From Candidatus Poribacteria bacterium (GTDB lineage: Bacteria; Poribacteria; WGA-4E; WGA-3G), in assembly GCA_965242965.1 (NCBI GenBank), contig OZ251518.1:2752001-2816000 (forward strand): a DNA stretch of 64,000 nucleotides, given 5' to 3'. The position numbers and the translations under genes were made by a program. Shown here one piece after another: positions 57,453 to 64,000 of the stretch. Within the stretch, counting starts at the first letter, position 1. Each line of letters opens with the position of its first letter. The notes beneath the pieces were generated by a model. The model made no database searches, was not told the DNA's origin, and was given only the letters and a program-made list of their open reading frames with translations.

Positions 57453-58343
57453 TTAACGCAACCGCTTGTCTGACAATTTGATAAGTTCGCCACTCTCCTG
57501 CGCGATATACAGATAGCCGAGCCCATCCAAGACAACCCCCTCCTGTTCATCGCCCGGTAAGAGATACCGGCTCAACACCGTTCCATCACGCTTAAGCTCC
57601 ACCAAAAGGTTCGTCGTATCGCTAATCAACACCAAGCAATCTGCGCGCTCATCGTAGGCCAGCCCAGAGATGTCAATGAAGTCCATCCGATGGAAACCGA
57701 CGATAGTCCCCGCTGCCCTTCGCGCCTGCGAAGAGCGCAGCGGCACAACCACTTCACACACAACCGATGGTTCACCGAGCGGTTTCAAACTAAACGACTG
57801 ATTCCCTACCCAAAACGTGCCTCCCTCTGGATGCGATGCGTCCGGCACAAAAACAATCGCCTCGATGCCCATGCCTCCCTTTTTCAGCAGTTGCGTCCCC
57901 TCAAAATCCCGCGCAATCTTGAACTCTCGCCGAACCTCCAACACGCCCGGGTCAAACTCCAGAATCGCCTCCTCATCTTCAACAGCAACATAGAGCATAC
58001 CTGTCGCCGGGTTCACCGTGATGCCCTCCAAATCCCGTCCATTCACCCGTTTCGATTGCACCAGCACGCCATCGGTTGGGTTTACCTCATAGATACTCCC
58101 CGAATCGTCGGCGACAAATAGGCTCCGGCGCATCGGATGATACGTGATCCCCGAAGGTTCAGCAATGTCCGCTTGGCTGATATTGCCCATCCAATGATAG
58201 GGCAGCGCGACGGGACGCGATGCCGCTGTCCGTTCCCTCACAGTCTGTTCTACCGTCACCAGAAAGTAGACGAGGGCGGCACTGAGCCCGATAATCAAAA
58301 TAATCATGAATGCTCGCTTATAAGACATCGAAAAATCCTCCAC
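57453..58343 (-). CDS. SdiA-regulated (YjiK-like) beta-propeller protein, membrane anchored
   Basis: N-terminal TM; EPSGITY, DLEGIT, GIEAI, DISGLAYD, EGVVLD..LYIAQE. Confidence 0.78.
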   Translation of the reverse strand: MEDFSMSYKRAFMIILIIGLSAALVYFLVTVEQTVRERTAASRPVALPYHWMGNISQADIAEPSGITYHPMRRSLFVADDSGSIYEVNPTDGVLVQSKRVNGRDLEGITVNPATGMLYVAVEDEEAILEFDPGVLEVRREFKIARDFEGTQLLKKGGMGIEAIVFVPDASHPEGGTFWVGNQSFSLKPLGEPSVVCEVVVPLRSSQARRAAGTIVGFHRMDFIDISGLAYDERADCLVLISDTTNLLVELKRDGTVLSRYLLPGDEQEGVVLDGLGYLYIAQESGELIKLSDKRLR

Positions 58344-58459: not shown

Positions 58460-58488
58460 TTGACAATTTTTTGACATTTTTATATAAT
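58460..58488 (+). promoter_or_regulatory. Perfect-consensus sigma70 promoter upstream of the crystallin-flotillin genes
   Basis: TTGACA-17-TATAAT. Confidence 0.75.
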
Positions 58489-59015
58489 AATCATAATGTC
58501 AGATATAGGGATTTTCGCCGCCCGTAGCGCGGGGGCCTGTCCCCCGCGTTGTCCATCGTCACGATGTGTGTTTCCCCGCTGTAGTTTGTGATCGCCTGAT
58601 CACAAACAGGGCAGGATCCGGCGATCCTGCCCTACAGAGCAGAGCCTGGCGCGCGAACGATGGCGAGGGACAGGCCCTCGCCCTACGGTAACGCACGCCG
58701 TTTTTTCCGTAGGGCGAACGATGGCGAGGGACAGGCCCTCGCCCTACGGTGAGGGGGGGGATTTTCGCCGCCCGTAGCGCGGGGGCCTGTCCCCCGCGAT
58801 CGTTGGATTCCGCGGGCACGCACGATGGCGAGGGAAACCCGCTCGCATGCGCGTGTGGCATCCGAGGGCCCACGCCCTACGATGAAATCGAGACCAGGAG
58901 GTCTCTCCTACAACGAAAATCGCAAAAAAAAATAGGCATGCCCTCGGGTTTTGCGAAGACCCGAGCGTCACAAGGTTCTAGGAACATTATTAACTCATAA
59001 AAAAAGAGACAACTC

Positions 59016-60431
59016 ATGACAAACATGCCCCGGCTCGTCGTTGAAGTCTTTGAACACGTCAATTTTCACGGACGCAAAGTCACACTCACCGACTCCATCC
59101 CCAACACCGCTGAAATTGGCGCGCAAGACATCATTTCGTCAATCAAGATTTACAAAGGCCCTGGGTTCAACGCATCGCCGAACTACAAAGCCGTTTTTCA
59201 CGAACACGAGAACTATCGTGGGCGGCGGCTCGTCCTCGCCCCCGGGTTCTACCCCAACATTCACGAGATACCGTACAACTTCGGGGATGCCATCACGGCG
59301 ATAAGTTTCAGTCCCTCCGCGCATCCCACACCGCCGGAGTATGGCGCAATCCCCGTGATTATTGAAGTCTTCCGCGATGTCGATTTCAGTGGGCAGCGGA
59401 GCGTCATCATGCGCGATGTCAGCTCCATGTTTGACATCGGCATGAACGACACCATTACTTCGATTCGTATCCAGCGCGGACCCAGTTTCCCCTTTCGCGG
59501 GTGTCACGTCATCTTTTATGAACACGTCAATTTTGAAGGGAGGCGGCTGAATCTCAACCTCAGCACACAAGAATTCCAACTCGCTATCCGGAACCTCCGG
59601 TCGCTGCCACATTCACAATCCTTTTCCGACATCATTTCCTCCGTGAAGATTGTGCCGTCCGGTGCCTTCCGCGTCCTCATTGTCGTCGGCGATAACCAGA
59701 CTGAGGAGCCCGCCGTGCTTGAATCGCTCACGACAGTGGAGGGACTAGAATTCCAATTTACCACCGTGCATATCAACGACAATCCAGACAACCATGGTGA
59801 TGCCAACAACGCCGTGAAACTCTCCAGCGTCACGCTGGCAGAATACGATATTATCTGGTTTACTTGGTTCGCGACCGGGCACGATGGCGAATATTTTGTG
59901 GAAGATGCCGACGCGGCAATTCAAGACTTTGTCCGGAAAGGCGGCATCGTCTGGGCATCCGCCATGGATAACAATATCACACCACCTGATGGCGTGCATA
60001 CCACCGAACCCAGTTGGCGCGGCGATTGGCTGCCTGTAGAGCGGCACCCCATCACCGTAGTCAACTCCTCCGATTGCAACGTCAGGATTACAGACGATGG
60101 GAGGAAAACCGGGCTGTTTACTTGGCCGCATAAAATTAATGTCGATACGCTCATTACCGATGATCATTGGGTAACAGACGACCCGAGTTACCGCAAATTG
60201 GCAGTCCGAGAGGACAACGGCGATGCCATCAGCGTGCAGCTGCAGTGGGGTGAAGGCTACTACGTCGCTTTCGCCGTGGACACGGGGGATGCCTTCCGCA
60301 CGGCGATAGCCAAACCGCTTATTGAAAATACCCTCTGTTATTTAGCGAACCTCGCGTGGCAGGCTTCGCCGCGCCAGCCGCTCAAGGGACGATACCGGAC
60401 GCAACAGAGTAGCATGTCCATGTTCCGCTAA
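59016..60431 (+). CDS. Beta/gamma-crystallin repeat protein with C-terminal glutamine-amidotransferase-like (ThuA-like) domain
   Basis: Four Greek-key motifs (FEHVNFHG..ISSIKI; HEHENYRG..ITAISF; FRDVDFSG..ITSIRI; YEHVNFEG..ISSVKI); LAEYDIIWF..IQDFVRKGGIV; no signal peptide. Confidence 0.8.
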   Translation: MTNMPRLVVEVFEHVNFHGRKVTLTDSIPNTAEIGAQDIISSIKIYKGPGFNASPNYKAVFHEHENYRGRRLVLAPGFYPNIHEIPYNFGDAITAISFSPSAHPTPPEYGAIPVIIEVFRDVDFSGQRSVIMRDVSSMFDIGMNDTITSIRIQRGPSFPFRGCHVIFYEHVNFEGRRLNLNLSTQEFQLAIRNLRSLPHSQSFSDIISSVKIVPSGAFRVLIVVGDNQTEEPAVLESLTTVEGLEFQFTTVHINDNPDNHGDANNAVKLSSVTLAEYDIIWFTWFATGHDGEYFVEDADAAIQDFVRKGGIVWASAMDNNITPPDGVHTTEPSWRGDWLPVERHPITVVNSSDCNVRITDDGRKTGLFTWPHKINVDTLITDDHWVTDDPSYRKLAVREDNGDAISVQLQWGEGYYVAFAVDTGDAFRTAIAKPLIENTLCYLANLAWQASPRQPLKGRYRTQQSSMSMFR

Positions 60432-60617
60432 CCTTGAAACCGGTTACCGTAGCGCGGGGGCCTGTCCCCCGCGAATGTGAAGAAACCGTCCGGTTACCGT
60501 AGCGCGGGGGCCTGTCCCCCGCAAACTGCCAACAATCTTGAAACTCAACATCGTAGCGCGGGGGCCTGTCCCCCGCGAGCGTCCAATAACAAACGTCATG
60601 AGAGGAACACTCCAAAA

Positions 60618-63452
60618 ATGCGTTTTATAGCCGTTTTCGTTTTCTTAATTGCTGTCGCCCTCGCCGTCGGATGGTTTACTTACCAAAACCTTGACAGCTT
60701 CGCACAGGGACAAGTCATGCGTATCTTTGGTGCCATCGCTGCTGTCCTCGTCGCTATCCTCGTCGCTTTCGCCGTGACCGTCATCCGCTATCGGATACCG
60801 AAAGCGGATATCGCCCTCGTGAGGACCGGTGGCGCGCGCGAGAAAATCCGCATCACCGGCGGCCTCTGGGTAAACACCATCATTCACGAAATCAAGGAAA
60901 TCTCCCTCAATACCATAAGAATTGAGGTAATCCGAGAAGGACCGGAGGCATTGATTACCTACGATTTCAACCGTGGTGATGTTGAGGTAGTCTTCTACCT
61001 GAAGGTGGAGCCGGTAGAGAATGCTATCCTCCGCGCAGCGCAGGCACTCGGCGATAAATCGATGACTCCCGAAACCGTGCGCGAACTCATCGAACCCAAA
61101 CTTGAAGGCGCGCTCCGAAGCGTCGCCGCCGAAAGTGAAATCCAGAACCTACTCCAAAAACGCCAAGAATTCGCCGATAAAGTGCAAGCCGCCTGCGGTG
61201 AAGACTTGGAAACACAAAACGGATTGACACTCGAAACCGTCTCGATTATCCGAGTAGATCAGACACCGGTTGAGACGCTGGACCCGGAGAACCGATTCGA
61301 TGCTGTCGGTATCCGTGAAATTACCGAAATCACCGCCGATCAAGAACGCGAAAAAGCACGCATCGTCTGGGAAAAAGAGGTAGCGATTGTTCGCATCGAG
61401 GTGGATGCACGCATTCAGCAATTGGACGCGGAACAAGAACAGGAATGGGCCCAGTCAGACCAGCAGCGGAATATCGCTCTCGTCGCCGCCGAACGACAGG
61501 CGGAAACCCTCAAGTTTCAATATGAGATGGACCAGGGTGTCCAAGAGCGCGAATACGAAATGAAACAGGAGGTTGAGAAAGCGCGCATCGCTCAGGAACA
61601 GGCTGTCCAAGAACGTGAGATTGAGATGAACCGCGACGTGGAAGTCGCACGCGTGCAACAAGAACAGATCGTCGCCGAACGCGAAATCGAGAAAAACCTC
61701 ATCGTTGAGACGCAGCAGATTGAGCAGTCTAAAGTCGTCCAACTCGCCGAGATTGAGCAGCATCTCGCCGTGCAGATGCAGAAAATCGAGCAGGAGCAGC
61801 AACTCGCCGTTCGCGACATTGAGAAGCAGCTCACCGTTGAGAAGGCGCGCATCGCCCAAGAAGAGGCGGTATCCTTACGCGATATTGAACGCGACTTGCT
61901 CGTTCAAACCGAACGCCTCGGACAGGAGCAACAGGTGCAACAACGCGAGATTGAAAAGAATCTCGTCGTCGAAACCGCCCAGATCGATCAGCTCCGACAA
62001 GTCGAACTCGCCGAGATTGCCAAAATCCTCGCCGTGGAAGTCACCCGCATCGTCCAAGAACAGCAGGTGGAAACGCGCGACATTGAGAAGCAGCTCTTCG
62101 TAGAGAAGGCGCGCATCGCCCAAGAAGAGGGAGTCTCCTTACGCGATATTGAACGCGACTTGCTCGTTCAAACCGAACGCCTCGGACAGGAGCAACAGGT
62201 GCAGCAGCGCGAGATTGAGAAGAACCTCGTCGTCGAAACCGCCCAGATCGATCAGCTCCGACAGGTGGAACTCGCCGAGATTGCCAAAATCCTCGCCGTA
62301 GAGGTAACGCGGATTGCGCAGGAACAACAGGTAGAGACGCGTGATATTGAGAAGCAGCTCTTCGTAGAGAAGGCGCGCATCGCTCAGGAAGAGGGAGTCT
62401 CCATACGCGATATTGAACGCGACTTGCTTGTCCAAACCGAACGGTTAAGTCAGGAGCAACAGGTGCAGCAGCGCGAGATTGAAAAGAATCTCGTCGTCGA
62501 AACCGCCCAGATCGATCAGCTCCGACAGGTGGAACTCGCCGAGATTGCCAAAATCCTCGCCGTAGAGGTAACGCGGATTGCGCAGGAACAACAGGTAGAG
62601 ACGCGTGATATTGAGAAGCAACTCTTCGTAGAGAAGGCGCGCATCGCTCAGGAAGAGGGAGTCTCCATACGCGATATCGAACGCGACCTGCTTGTCCAAA
62701 CCGAACGCCTCGGACAGGAACAGCAAGTGCAACAGCGCGAGATTGAGAAGAACCTCGTTGTCGAAACCGCCCAGATCGACCAGGTTCGGCAAGTTGAACT
62801 CGCCGAGATTGCTAGAATGCTTAACGTGGAACAGTCCCGAATCAATCAGGAATTGCGCGTGACGTTGAGCGACGAAGATAGGAATATCGAAGTCGCCCAG
62901 AAACAGCAGGTGACGGCACTCGCGGAGAAGGAGCAGTTGCTTGCGGAAGCCGAACGCATGGGTGCCGAGGTGAACGTCACAGCAACGGAGCAGGTGAAAG
63001 AGGCGGAGTGGCAGCGTGAAGTCGCCATCATCGGTGCGGAGGCGCAGGCGCAGCCGATTGAACGTCTCGCCGATGCGGTGCTTGCCGAAGCGCGGGCCAA
63101 AGCGCAAGGCGAGATGGCGGAATACGAAGCGCGCAACGTCGCCGAACAACGCGTCCTCGTGCAGGAGGCAATCTTGGAGCTCATTGAGGAAGCACCGGAG
63201 ATTATCGAGCAGATGGTTAAACCCGTTGAGAAGATCGACAGTATCAAAATCTTGGACATGGGGAATACCGATGGGCAAGGCGGCATCAACCGGAACAACA
63301 TGGGCAAACTGGCGAACGCGCTGCTTGACACCGGGGTGATTTCTCCGATGCTGAAGGAGTTGTTCAACTTCGCCGATGTCGATGCACAGCAGATTACCGA
63401 CAAAATCGCTGAGTATCTGGCAGACCTGGTGAATAGCCCGAATGCCAGTTAA
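60618..63452 (+). CDS. Giant SPFH/flotillin-family protein (944 aa) with expanded coiled-coil repeats
   Basis: Two N-terminal TM helices; ALVRTG, EISLNT, LEGALRSVAA, NGLTLETVSI, NRFDAVG (SPFH); C-terminal PVEKIDSIKIL (flotillin). Confidence 0.9.
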   Translation: MRFIAVFVFLIAVALAVGWFTYQNLDSFAQGQVMRIFGAIAAVLVAILVAFAVTVIRYRIPKADIALVRTGGAREKIRITGGLWVNTIIHEIKEISLNTIRIEVIREGPEALITYDFNRGDVEVVFYLKVEPVENAILRAAQALGDKSMTPETVRELIEPKLEGALRSVAAESEIQNLLQKRQEFADKVQAACGEDLETQNGLTLETVSIIRVDQTPVETLDPENRFDAVGIREITEITADQEREKARIVWEKEVAIVRIEVDARIQQLDAEQEQEWAQSDQQRNIALVAAERQAETLKFQYEMDQGVQEREYEMKQEVEKARIAQEQAVQEREIEMNRDVEVARVQQEQIVAEREIEKNLIVETQQIEQSKVVQLAEIEQHLAVQMQKIEQEQQLAVRDIEKQLTVEKARIAQEEAVSLRDIERDLLVQTERLGQEQQVQQREIEKNLVVETAQIDQLRQVELAEIAKILAVEVTRIVQEQQVETRDIEKQLFVEKARIAQEEGVSLRDIERDLLVQTERLGQEQQVQQREIEKNLVVETAQIDQLRQVELAEIAKILAVEVTRIAQEQQVETRDIEKQLFVEKARIAQEEGVSIRDIERDLLVQTERLSQEQQVQQREIEKNLVVETAQIDQLRQVELAEIAKILAVEVTRIAQEQQVETRDIEKQLFVEKARIAQEEGVSIRDIERDLLVQTERLGQEQQVQQREIEKNLVVETAQIDQVRQVELAEIARMLNVEQSRINQELRVTLSDEDRNIEVAQKQQVTALAEKEQLLAEAERMGAEVNVTATEQVKEAEWQREVAIIGAEAQAQPIERLADAVLAEARAKAQGEMAEYEARNVAEQRVLVQEAILELIEEAPEIIEQMVKPVEKIDSIKILDMGNTDGQGGINRNNMGKLANALLDTGVISPMLKELFNFADVDAQQITDKIAEYLADLVNSPNAS
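61780..62815 (+). repeat. 264-bp (88-aa = 4 x 22-aa) intragenic tandem repeat, about 3.5-4 copies
   Basis: VS(L/I)RDIERDLL codons recur at about 61869, 62133, 62397 and 62661. Confidence 0.9.
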
Positions 63453-63952: not shown

Positions 63953-64000
63953 ATGGATAGACTGAAACAAAACATCGCCGATACACTCCAATGCTTGGCA
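63953..64000 (+). CDS. 5' end of a gene running off the window (MDRLKQNIADTLQCLA...)
   Basis: GGAGGGAG RBS followed by ATG and an open frame to the window end. Confidence 0.45.
   Translation, partial: MDRLKQNIADTLQCLA

Follow-up and report, generated by a model that had tools for sequence, protein, structure and literature searches.

Analysis of a 64,000-nucleotide stretch of a Candidatus Poribacteria genome (the window; C1:2752001-2816000, C1 being the contig that carries it) revealed the first two-thirds of a flotillin operon, in which a sigma-70 consensus promoter is followed by a gene for a protein joining beta/gamma-crystallin domains to a ThuA-like domain, a gene for a long flotillin whose stalk is made of 88-residue modules and, outside the window, a gene for a Cys-rich zinc-ribbon protein. 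A restriction-modification gene splits the second and third genes here. The gene set is conserved among relatives, their flotillins form a ladder of lengths, the modules are under purifying selection and the stalk has a strict periodicity. On balance we lean towards the view that this Poribacteria-specific operon encodes a modular wall scaffold of the SPFH class, in which soluble partners replace NfeD or YqiJ. The host is an uncultivated, abundant sponge symbiont whose cell plan has long been debated, and its metagenome-assembled genome comprises 5.70 Mb in 2 contigs at 94.7% completeness. Public records name the proteins 'SPFH domain-containing protein' or 'hypothetical protein'. A literature search over full texts without supplements found no paper on this poribacterial crystallin-flotillin cluster, and neither SPFH nor 'band 7' is mentioned in the available part of PMC5087111, which deals with compartmentation in Poribacteria. 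The features lying in the window are these:

58460..58488, + strand: sigma-70 consensus promoter of the operon, TTGACA-17-TATAAT (12/12 positions match)
58500..58900, no strand: cluster of GC-rich hairpins resembling repetitive extragenic palindromic (REP) elements, between promoter and start codon (direct sequence view and motif census)
59016..59654, + strand: two beta/gamma-crystallin domains with four Greek keys, residues 1-213 (Pfam Crystall, E 1.3e-19, two stretches)
59655..60365, + strand: ThuA-like or class-I-glutamine-amidotransferase (GATase)-like domain, residues 214-450 (AlphaFold2, Foldseek, VIA-align)
60351..60398, + strand: conserved C-terminal tail LAWQxSPRQPLxGRxR, residues 446-461 (alignment of 17 orthologues)
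60440..60590, no strand: three REP hairpins in the 186-nt crystallin-flotillin spacer (direct sequence view)
60618..60803, + strand: N-terminal membrane hairpin of the flotillin, two hydrophobic segments, residues 1-62 (hydropathy)
60795..61358, + strand: SPFH/Band_7 domain, residues 60-247 (PF01145, E 4.3e-15, 56.6 bits against a cut-off of 23.6)
61533..62852, + strand: stalk of 20 in-register repeats of 22 residues, forming 5 modules of 88 residues (ABCD), residues 306-745 (repeat analysis)
63036..63368, + strand: C-terminal Flot domain, residues 807-917 (PF15975, E 1e-19, 71.3 bits against a cut-off of 27)

Three genes are inherited together in Poribacteria

Clustering of the open reading frames (ORFs) of 17 twenty-kb loci from three families revealed exactly three gene families common to all loci (17/17), on the same strand and in the order crystallin-ThuA protein, flotillin, Cys-rich protein, and the genes flanking the trio differ between the three families. 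No NfeD or YqiJ gene adjoins the long flotillin and neither is among the gene families common to the 17 loci, in agreement with the first-pass annotation of the window, which had seen no NfeD-type neighbour. In 80 further species the flotillin gene lies directly downstream of the crystallin gene in 79, the exception being a contig end, and the third gene was found in 76; the median gaps in relatives are 63 nt between the first two genes and 85 nt between flotillin and the third gene. One family of the 17 loci has intergenic gaps of only 24-26 and 11 nt, with a second crystallin protein (crystallin + DUF1349) preceding the trio. The first-pass annotation had treated crystallin and flotillin as a pair, and the conserved order, common strand and close spacing uphold this pairing, but the unit contains at least three genes. 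A survey of 151 genomes from the phylum gave matches to the third gene in 120 and an orthologue of the crystallin-ThuA protein in 118; neither turned up in three genera (g7, g10 and g11) or in one further genome.

The cluster extends to deep lineages. Locus L168 carries a crystallin-DUF1349 protein, a crystallin protein that has a pair of ThuA-like domains, a flotillin spread over two ORFs and also the Cys-rich core, and locus L166 carries both crystallin proteins, a flotillin of 1208 amino acids (aa) and the Cys-rich core. The three genes are inherited together and in one genome they are apparently broken together: in G069 (L171, C1:4932000-4951900) all three change reading frame, one of them also with a TAG codon, while 7/7 downstream neighbours align in a single frame, a pattern that may reflect joint pseudogenisation or loss, or else an error of assembly.

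The promoter at 58460-58488 is the sole perfect match in the window, in which a scan allowing up to one mismatch gave 6 matches against 0.03 expected from shuffles; a perfect promoter ahead of a crystallin protein lacking a signal sequence had been proposed at first pass and is indeed what is found. Within 800 nt upstream of orthologous crystallin genes, the best site is perfect at 37/80 loci and has one mismatch at 24/80, the end of its -10 element standing about 50-57 nt before the ATG in most of the 80 loci. Here the distance to the ATG (59016) is 527 nt, compared with about 50 nt in most relatives, because the REP cluster fills the gap. A scan of the 186-nt crystallin-flotillin spacer found no terminator-like site.

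The intergenic regions of the window are filled by two families of GC-rich palindromic REP-like elements, namely CGCGGGGG-loop-CCCCCGCG (family 1, 38 copies in 64 kb) and GGCGAGGG-loop-CCCTCGCC (family 2, 27 copies in 64 kb), with examples at 58528, 58662, 58723, 58778, 60453, 60557, 63535, 63578, 63636, 63825 and 63883, and REP insertion has lengthened the leader and the spacers of the operon in this genome. Contigs 95-99% identical to the unique parts of the crystallin and flotillin genes occur in runs of four studies, one of them labelled sponge metagenome; the contigs from these 4 runs stop at REP elements and within the repeat array, and none bridges the array or either spacer. At the REP elements the contigs of the four runs pile up to a summed depth of 100 to 10,000 times that of the flanking genes.

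The third gene lies 3' of the flotillin, here at C1:2820781-2822076. Between the two are inserted an ORF of 165 aa (start at 63954 of the window) and a 1023-aa Eco57I/MmeI-like restriction-modification gene, which together occupy window 63954-64000 and L015:7954-11552 (C1:2815953-2819551), and the same-genus genome G002 has other ORFs inserted at this place. A second perfect TTGACA-17-TATAAT is found at L015:11732-11760, about 1 kb upstream of the displaced third gene, whose expression it may restore after the insertion.

The flotillin and its modular stalk

The flotillin gene (60618-63452) begins with ATG and encodes 944 aa. A GTG start at 60477, giving 991 aa, was rejected, as the orthologues begin at the ATG of 60618 (MRF/MRL...). 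Hydropathy windows of 19 residues exceeding 1.6 begin at residues 1-7 and 29-43, and a basic stretch (RYRIPK...) comes directly after the second hydrophobic segment; given this position of the basic stretch and the positive-inside rule, the SPFH domain and the stalk would be cytoplasmic. Against the FloT equivalog NF058507 of NCBIfam the protein scored 23.9 bits, the cut-off being 700. By phmmer, residues 67-387 align weakly to flotillin-1 of 9bq2/9l3g (E 0.002) and residues 738-893 to residues 248-398 of flotillin-2 (E 0.011), so that the 22-residue repeats fall between the two aligned stretches. A profile of the flotillin alignment gave no match at E<=0.001 among the sequences of the Protein Data Bank (PDB).

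The repeats run for 440 aa with unbroken register, four distinct repeat types (ABCD) making up each 88-residue module, and thus bear out the 944-aa flotillin with a stalk of 22-residue repeats described at first pass. Self-identity of the stalk is 0.70 at a shift of 88, 0.41 at a shift of 22 and 0.10 at a shift of 7, and Tandem Repeats Finder reports for its DNA a period of 264 nt with 3.8 copies and 91% matches. Residues 240-830 contain 1 Pro and 9 Gly. Hydrophobic residues occupy positions 3 and 14 of the 22-residue repeat, forming one stripe, and positions 8, 12 and 19, forming another; the two stripes are about 130-165 degrees apart and run straight on a helix of 22 residues per 6 turns. 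The hydropathy spectrum has peaks at 2.75 and 5.5 residues, a weak one at 3.67 and none at 3.5, the position of a heptad signal. One stripe would be expected of a coiled coil with a single core, whereas a helix packed against two neighbours in a sheet or barrel needs a pair; the stripes seen are compatible with, though no proof of, such a wall helix. An alpha-helix rises 0.15 nm per residue, so that a module of 88 residues would measure at most 13 nm and the whole Pro-free stretch at most about 86 nm. The helix length of 70-80 nm given in the first-pass annotation is therefore sound as arithmetic but belongs to the upper range and can serve as an upper bound only.

The length of the flotillin varies between species in a stepwise manner, with orthologues of 678-702, 755-792, 854-856 and 942-944 aa. 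Module counts at 79 loci showed 2 modules in 13, 3 in 57, 4 in 3 and 5 in 3, the other 3/79 yielding no count owing to N gaps, which lie within the array in the short-read assemblies L115, L116 and L157. Three modules are the usual form, exactly 766 aa long in 30/57, and single-contig genomes carry flotillins of 942, 854, 766, 755 and 687 aa. What was at first called a giant flotillin is thus not special: it stands at the five-module end of a ladder of 2-5 modules. Longer forms were also seen, namely the 1208-aa flotillin of a deep poribacterial lineage (L166:10144-13770) and, in a short-read assembly, an open frame of at least 1386 aa broken by 100 N (L157:7676-11836). No relative above 1652 aa was found at E<=1e-30, which is weak evidence.

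In the window genome the DNA identity among modules 2-5 is 80-94%, and their six pairs differ by 13/2, 16/6, 22/8, 23/8, 27/8 and 27/13 synonymous/non-synonymous codons; this predominance of synonymous changes shows purifying selection on the modules and speaks against an artefact of assembly. Between genomes, module 1 is orthologous (81-89%). The inner modules are 92-100% identical within G005 and, for most pairs, 84-94% within the window genome (G000), compared with 70-81% between these genera, indicating recurrent expansion or gene conversion within lineages. One family is 11 residues off (755 compared with 766 aa) and keeps the half-repeat phase. Length changes by whole 88-residue modules or by 11-residue steps, and helix register is preserved.

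The long flotillin is not the only SPFH protein of this genome. A canonical flotillin of 619 aa (Band_7 + Flot) with a YqiJ_N gene directly upstream is encoded at L013:5988-8634 (C1, about 2.09 Mb), two NfeD Pfam matches, the sole ones in the genome, lie beside a weak Band_7 match at C1:3.937 Mb, and a stomatin-like Band_7 protein is found at 4.53 Mb. The presence of a canonical flotillin with YqiJ in the same genome indicates that the long flotillin is an extra, specialised paralogue and not the sole SPFH scaffold.

The soluble partner proteins

The crystallin protein (59016-60431, 471 aa) has no hydrophobic N-terminus, its sequence opening directly in the first beta-strand. The four Greek keys seen at first pass are confirmed by the Pfam match and by the signature [YFWH]xxxx[YFW]xG, present 4/4 times (residues 12, 62, 119 and 168, one with His first). 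The canonical Ca2+ motif of crystallins, defined in the available part of PMC3551895 as N/D-N/D-x-x-S/T-S, occurs only in Greek key 3 (NDTITS, residues 144-149), where it is kept in 17/17 orthologues; the motifs of the remaining keys (QDIISS, GDAITA and SDIISS) are non-canonical at position 1 and/or 6. In neither domain do both Greek keys carry the canonical motif, which is how that part of PMC3551895 describes a Ca2+-binding crystallin. The calcium responsiveness put forward in the first-pass annotation therefore retains one canonical motif, while the other three of the 4 are degenerate, and we regard calcium control of the unit as weakly grounded. A paralogue with two crystallin domains and a DUF1349/ConA-like domain lies among sugar-metabolism genes (L014:7210-8604, C1 about 713 kb), and proteins of this crystallin-DUF1349 type lie inside the flotillin cluster in one family and in the deep lineages.

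AlphaFold2 on the whole 471-aa protein with 17 close orthologues gave an unusable model (mean predicted local distance difference test score, pLDDT, 51), and we therefore used a model of residues 214-471 from a more diverse alignment, with a mean pLDDT of 89.1 and a predicted template modelling score of 0.87. Foldseek assigned this model to class-I-GATase-like folds (probability 1.00, E about 1e-7). VIA-align ranked ThuA-like 1t0b first (Z 15.1, root-mean-square deviation 4.2, 205 residues aligned) and 4jqs second (Z 15.0), followed by 2gk3 and 3rht (Z 14.8), class-I-GATase-like folds overall reaching Z 13-15; over 191-205 aligned residues these four structures share the fold at Z 14.8-15.1 and just 6-13% identity. 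Profile evidence is faint: Pfam ThuA (PF06283) matches the protein at E 0.022-0.064 with about 14-15 bits, the cut-off being 33.4, the weak hints of ThuA, DUF4159, LBP_M and GH42M all agree with a ThuA-like/GATase-like fold, and the domain profile found chance-level matches only among PDB sequences, a ThuA-like protein appearing at E 0.66. The family is rare: in a search of 1.84 billion representative proteins, only 42 relatives of the C-terminal 258 residues reached E<=1e-3. An alignment of 34 sequences (19 of these 42 relatives, 14 orthologues and the query) contains no Cys or His that is invariant or nearly so, indicating that the glutaminase triad (Cys-His-Glu) is not conserved. The GATase-like domain of the first-pass annotation is thus right as a fold and probably wrong as chemistry, and the family differs in this from a catalytic GATase.

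In the conserved tail of the crystallin-ThuA protein, L446, A447, W448, Q449, S451-L456, G458, R459 and R461 are invariant in 17 orthologues, and the last 17 residues (455-471, domain residues 242-258) have pLDDT <50 and are predicted to be disordered; the segment 446-461 is a candidate docking motif. Stand-alone ThuA-like relatives of 250-280 aa have signal-like hydrophobic N-termini and a common AVEPxxKLxxxWGxIK-type end, which aligns with the SPRQPLKGRYR tail of the operon protein.

The third protein is 431 aa long here and 431-450 aa in relatives. Its core consists of an N-terminal Cys-rich domain and a C-terminal zinc ribbon with invariant CxxC...CxxC, and the middle beta-sandwich is a frequent insertion that, depending on the lineage, is absent, unannotated, discoidin or LamG. 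Pfam gave weak zinc-ribbon hints only (E 0.015-0.6), NCBIfam gave nothing and a search of the ESM Atlas returned no usable match.

Possible assemblies and competing explanations

The reading that we lean towards can be put as a series of steps. The flotillin would be anchored in the cytoplasmic membrane by its N-terminal hairpin, leaving SPFH domain and stalk on the cytoplasmic side; the stalk would form one long helix, whose stripes would pack side by side with two neighbours, and the packed helices would make a single-layer wall like that of the solved SPFH cages, with the Flot domain closing it. At most about 13 nm of wall would come with each module, allowing species to build cages or tubes of stepped height, and the soluble partners would dock on or in the scaffold as clients or adaptors, in the place of NfeD or YqiJ. 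Several points weigh against this proposal. That barrels form, how high each module makes them and that partners dock are all deduced from sequence, and a monomer's sequence cannot tell whether the stalk is part of a barrel wall, a fibrous tether or a bundle folded back on itself. Complex prediction with flotillin residues 57-300 and 746-944 and the whole crystallin-ThuA protein scored 0.00 against a mark of 0.32, a result that argues in neither direction as to binding. Domains of the crystallin, ConA-like, LamG, discoidin and ThuA-like kinds are more typical of sugar-binding and secreted proteins, and the signal-like N-termini of the stand-alone ThuA-like relatives are awkward for a client located in the cytoplasm. 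As the genomes are related and hence not independent, the co-occurrence counts overstate the support, and the frameshifts of G069, seen in one assembly only, could be errors of sequencing. Finally, the case for co-transcription is one of spacing and promoter, and in the window genome the third gene is 5.3 kb off with a perfect promoter of its own and the spacers hold REP hairpins.

Known systems resemble the operon in part. Bacterial flotillin-NfeD operons such as floT-yuaF of B. subtilis and yqiJ-yqiK of E. coli likewise place a flotillin in a small operon with dedicated partner genes, whereas the poribacterial partners are a soluble crystallin/ThuA-like protein and a Cys-rich zinc-ribbon protein, no NfeD or YqiJ gene adjoins, and the stalk is modular and of variable length. 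The vault, built of major vault protein, offers an analogy only: the poribacterial scaffold, too, would have a large repeat-built wall with dedicated soluble proteins, but vault walls consist mostly of repeated beta-domains and a short cap helix, and the vault usually occurs as a free particle. Among solved structures, the eukaryotic flotillin-1/flotillin-2 complex (9bq2, 9l3g) is the best, though weak, sequence match and shares the SPFH domain and a Flot-type C-terminal domain, and its long wall helix would have a counterpart in the poribacterial stalk. According to the available part of PMC11260169, from which the human side of the following comparisons is taken, the wall of human flotillin is a single-layer right-handed barrel of 44 helices, each 186 aa long, in a basket 22 nm high that narrows from 32 to 19 nm, and in those authors' view the length of SPFH proteins sets the size of the complex. 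Heptad repeats occur in neither the human flotillin nor the poribacterial stalk. In contrast to the 186 residues of the human wall helix, the poribacterial flotillin has about 570 Pro-free residues; charged clusters and A/G-E repeats hold the human wall together, the poribacterial stalk carries two hydrophobic stripes in a strict 22-residue repeat; the human protein attaches to the membrane by lipidated SPFH1 domains, the poribacterial one has a hydrophobic hairpin of two segments; and the human complex is a hetero-oligomer of two paralogues, whereas the operon has a single flotillin gene. Microbial beta/gamma-crystallins such as Protein S, spherulin 3a and vibrillin, as described in the available part of PMC3551895, are like the operon protein in their Greek keys and in one canonical Ca2+ motif, but the latter differs in its ThuA-like fusion, its place in a flotillin operon, the absence of a signal peptide and the degeneration of three of 4 Ca2+ motifs.

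Could the cluster be an ordinary flotillin microdomain scaffold, whose neighbours are merely co-transcribed or loose clients and whose module number drifts neutrally by unequal crossing-over within a 264-nt repeat, without any structural effect of note? The Band_7-to-Flot spacing of the 2-module form, about 294 aa, is near the 264 aa of the canonical paralogue, and the inner modules are homogenised within genomes, as recombination-driven turnover would make them. We nevertheless find this explanation unlikely, given that the trio stays together across families with differing flanks and in deep lineages, that the three genes change frame together in G069, that the module sequences are under purifying selection and that changes in length keep whole modules or 11-residue steps and with them the helix register. 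The stalk might instead serve as a fibrous spacer or tether, built as a low-order coiled coil or as a helix turned back on itself, which would keep a granule, a microcompartment, a second membrane or the like in the cytoplasm at a fixed distance from the membrane and bear the partners at its tip. Periodicities of 11 and 22 residues are also found in fibrous right-handed coiled coils, and stepwise changes of length are typical of molecular rulers. The available parts of the two relevant papers add that the narrow end of the human flotillin complex sometimes touches a second membrane (PMC11260169) and that Poribacteria have bipolar granules and expressed microcompartment genes (PMC5087111). Yet stripes 130-165 degrees apart, with a strong 5.5- and a weak 3.67-residue periodicity, better suit lateral packing with two neighbours, and conservation extends to both end domains, SPFH and Flot, by which the cages of solved complexes are closed, making a tether quite improbable.

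The first-pass annotation itself had proposed a calcium-responsive cage on the scale of a vault, with the crystallin protein as possible cargo or regulator; on this idea, Ca2+ binding by the crystallin domains would regulate loading or assembly. The canonical motif of Greek key 3 in 17/17 orthologues speaks for it, as do the Asp/Asn and Ser/Thr positions retained by the other three keys, but with 3/4 motifs non-canonical at position 1 and/or 6, the cytoplasm being a compartment low in Ca2+ and nothing tying Ca2+ to the flotillin, we give this idea a small chance at best. Hardly credible is the explanation that the long repeat array is an artefact of assembly, which had been named at first pass as something that would overturn the finding. 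Short-read assemblies of relatives do break within the array (N gaps in L115, L116 and L157), but the window belongs to a 5.70-Mb genome in 2 contigs, its modules are 6-20% apart in DNA with mostly synonymous differences, five modules turn up again in G002, in G005 and in three other species and four modules in single-contig genomes, all of which indicates that the repeats are real.

A bolder form of the scaffold reading is a membrane-anchored SPFH nanotube or cage, its height set digitally by the 88-residue modules and with lectin-like proteins docked through their tails, which would constitute a new cytoplasmic compartment; as it stands we consider this unlikely. The modules would then act as a natural molecular ruler of 2-5 units, and possibly of 8 or more in the forms of 1208 and at least 1386 aa, and such a structure, if true, may be related to the compartment-like features long discussed for Poribacteria. 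From solved SPFH cages it would seem that the extent of the membrane patch enclosed and the size of the compartment depend on how long the wall helix is; near-isogenic natural flotillins with 2, 3, 4 and 5 modules of identical type make the question directly testable. The partner set, unlike any flotillin partner that we found, might in addition reveal how SPFH scaffolds recruit soluble clients.

Two neighbours of the trio are confined to the family of the window. A 765-aa M6-peptidase-like protein with a FlgD-Ig/CHU_C-like end (L015:14013-16310) overlaps the end of the third gene, and its gene follows the third gene only in this family (13/17 loci) and not in the other two. Upstream, a divergent SdiA-regulated/phytase-like protein with an N-terminal membrane segment is encoded at 57453-58343 of the window on the minus strand and is kept in the same family (12/17 loci) and not beyond it.

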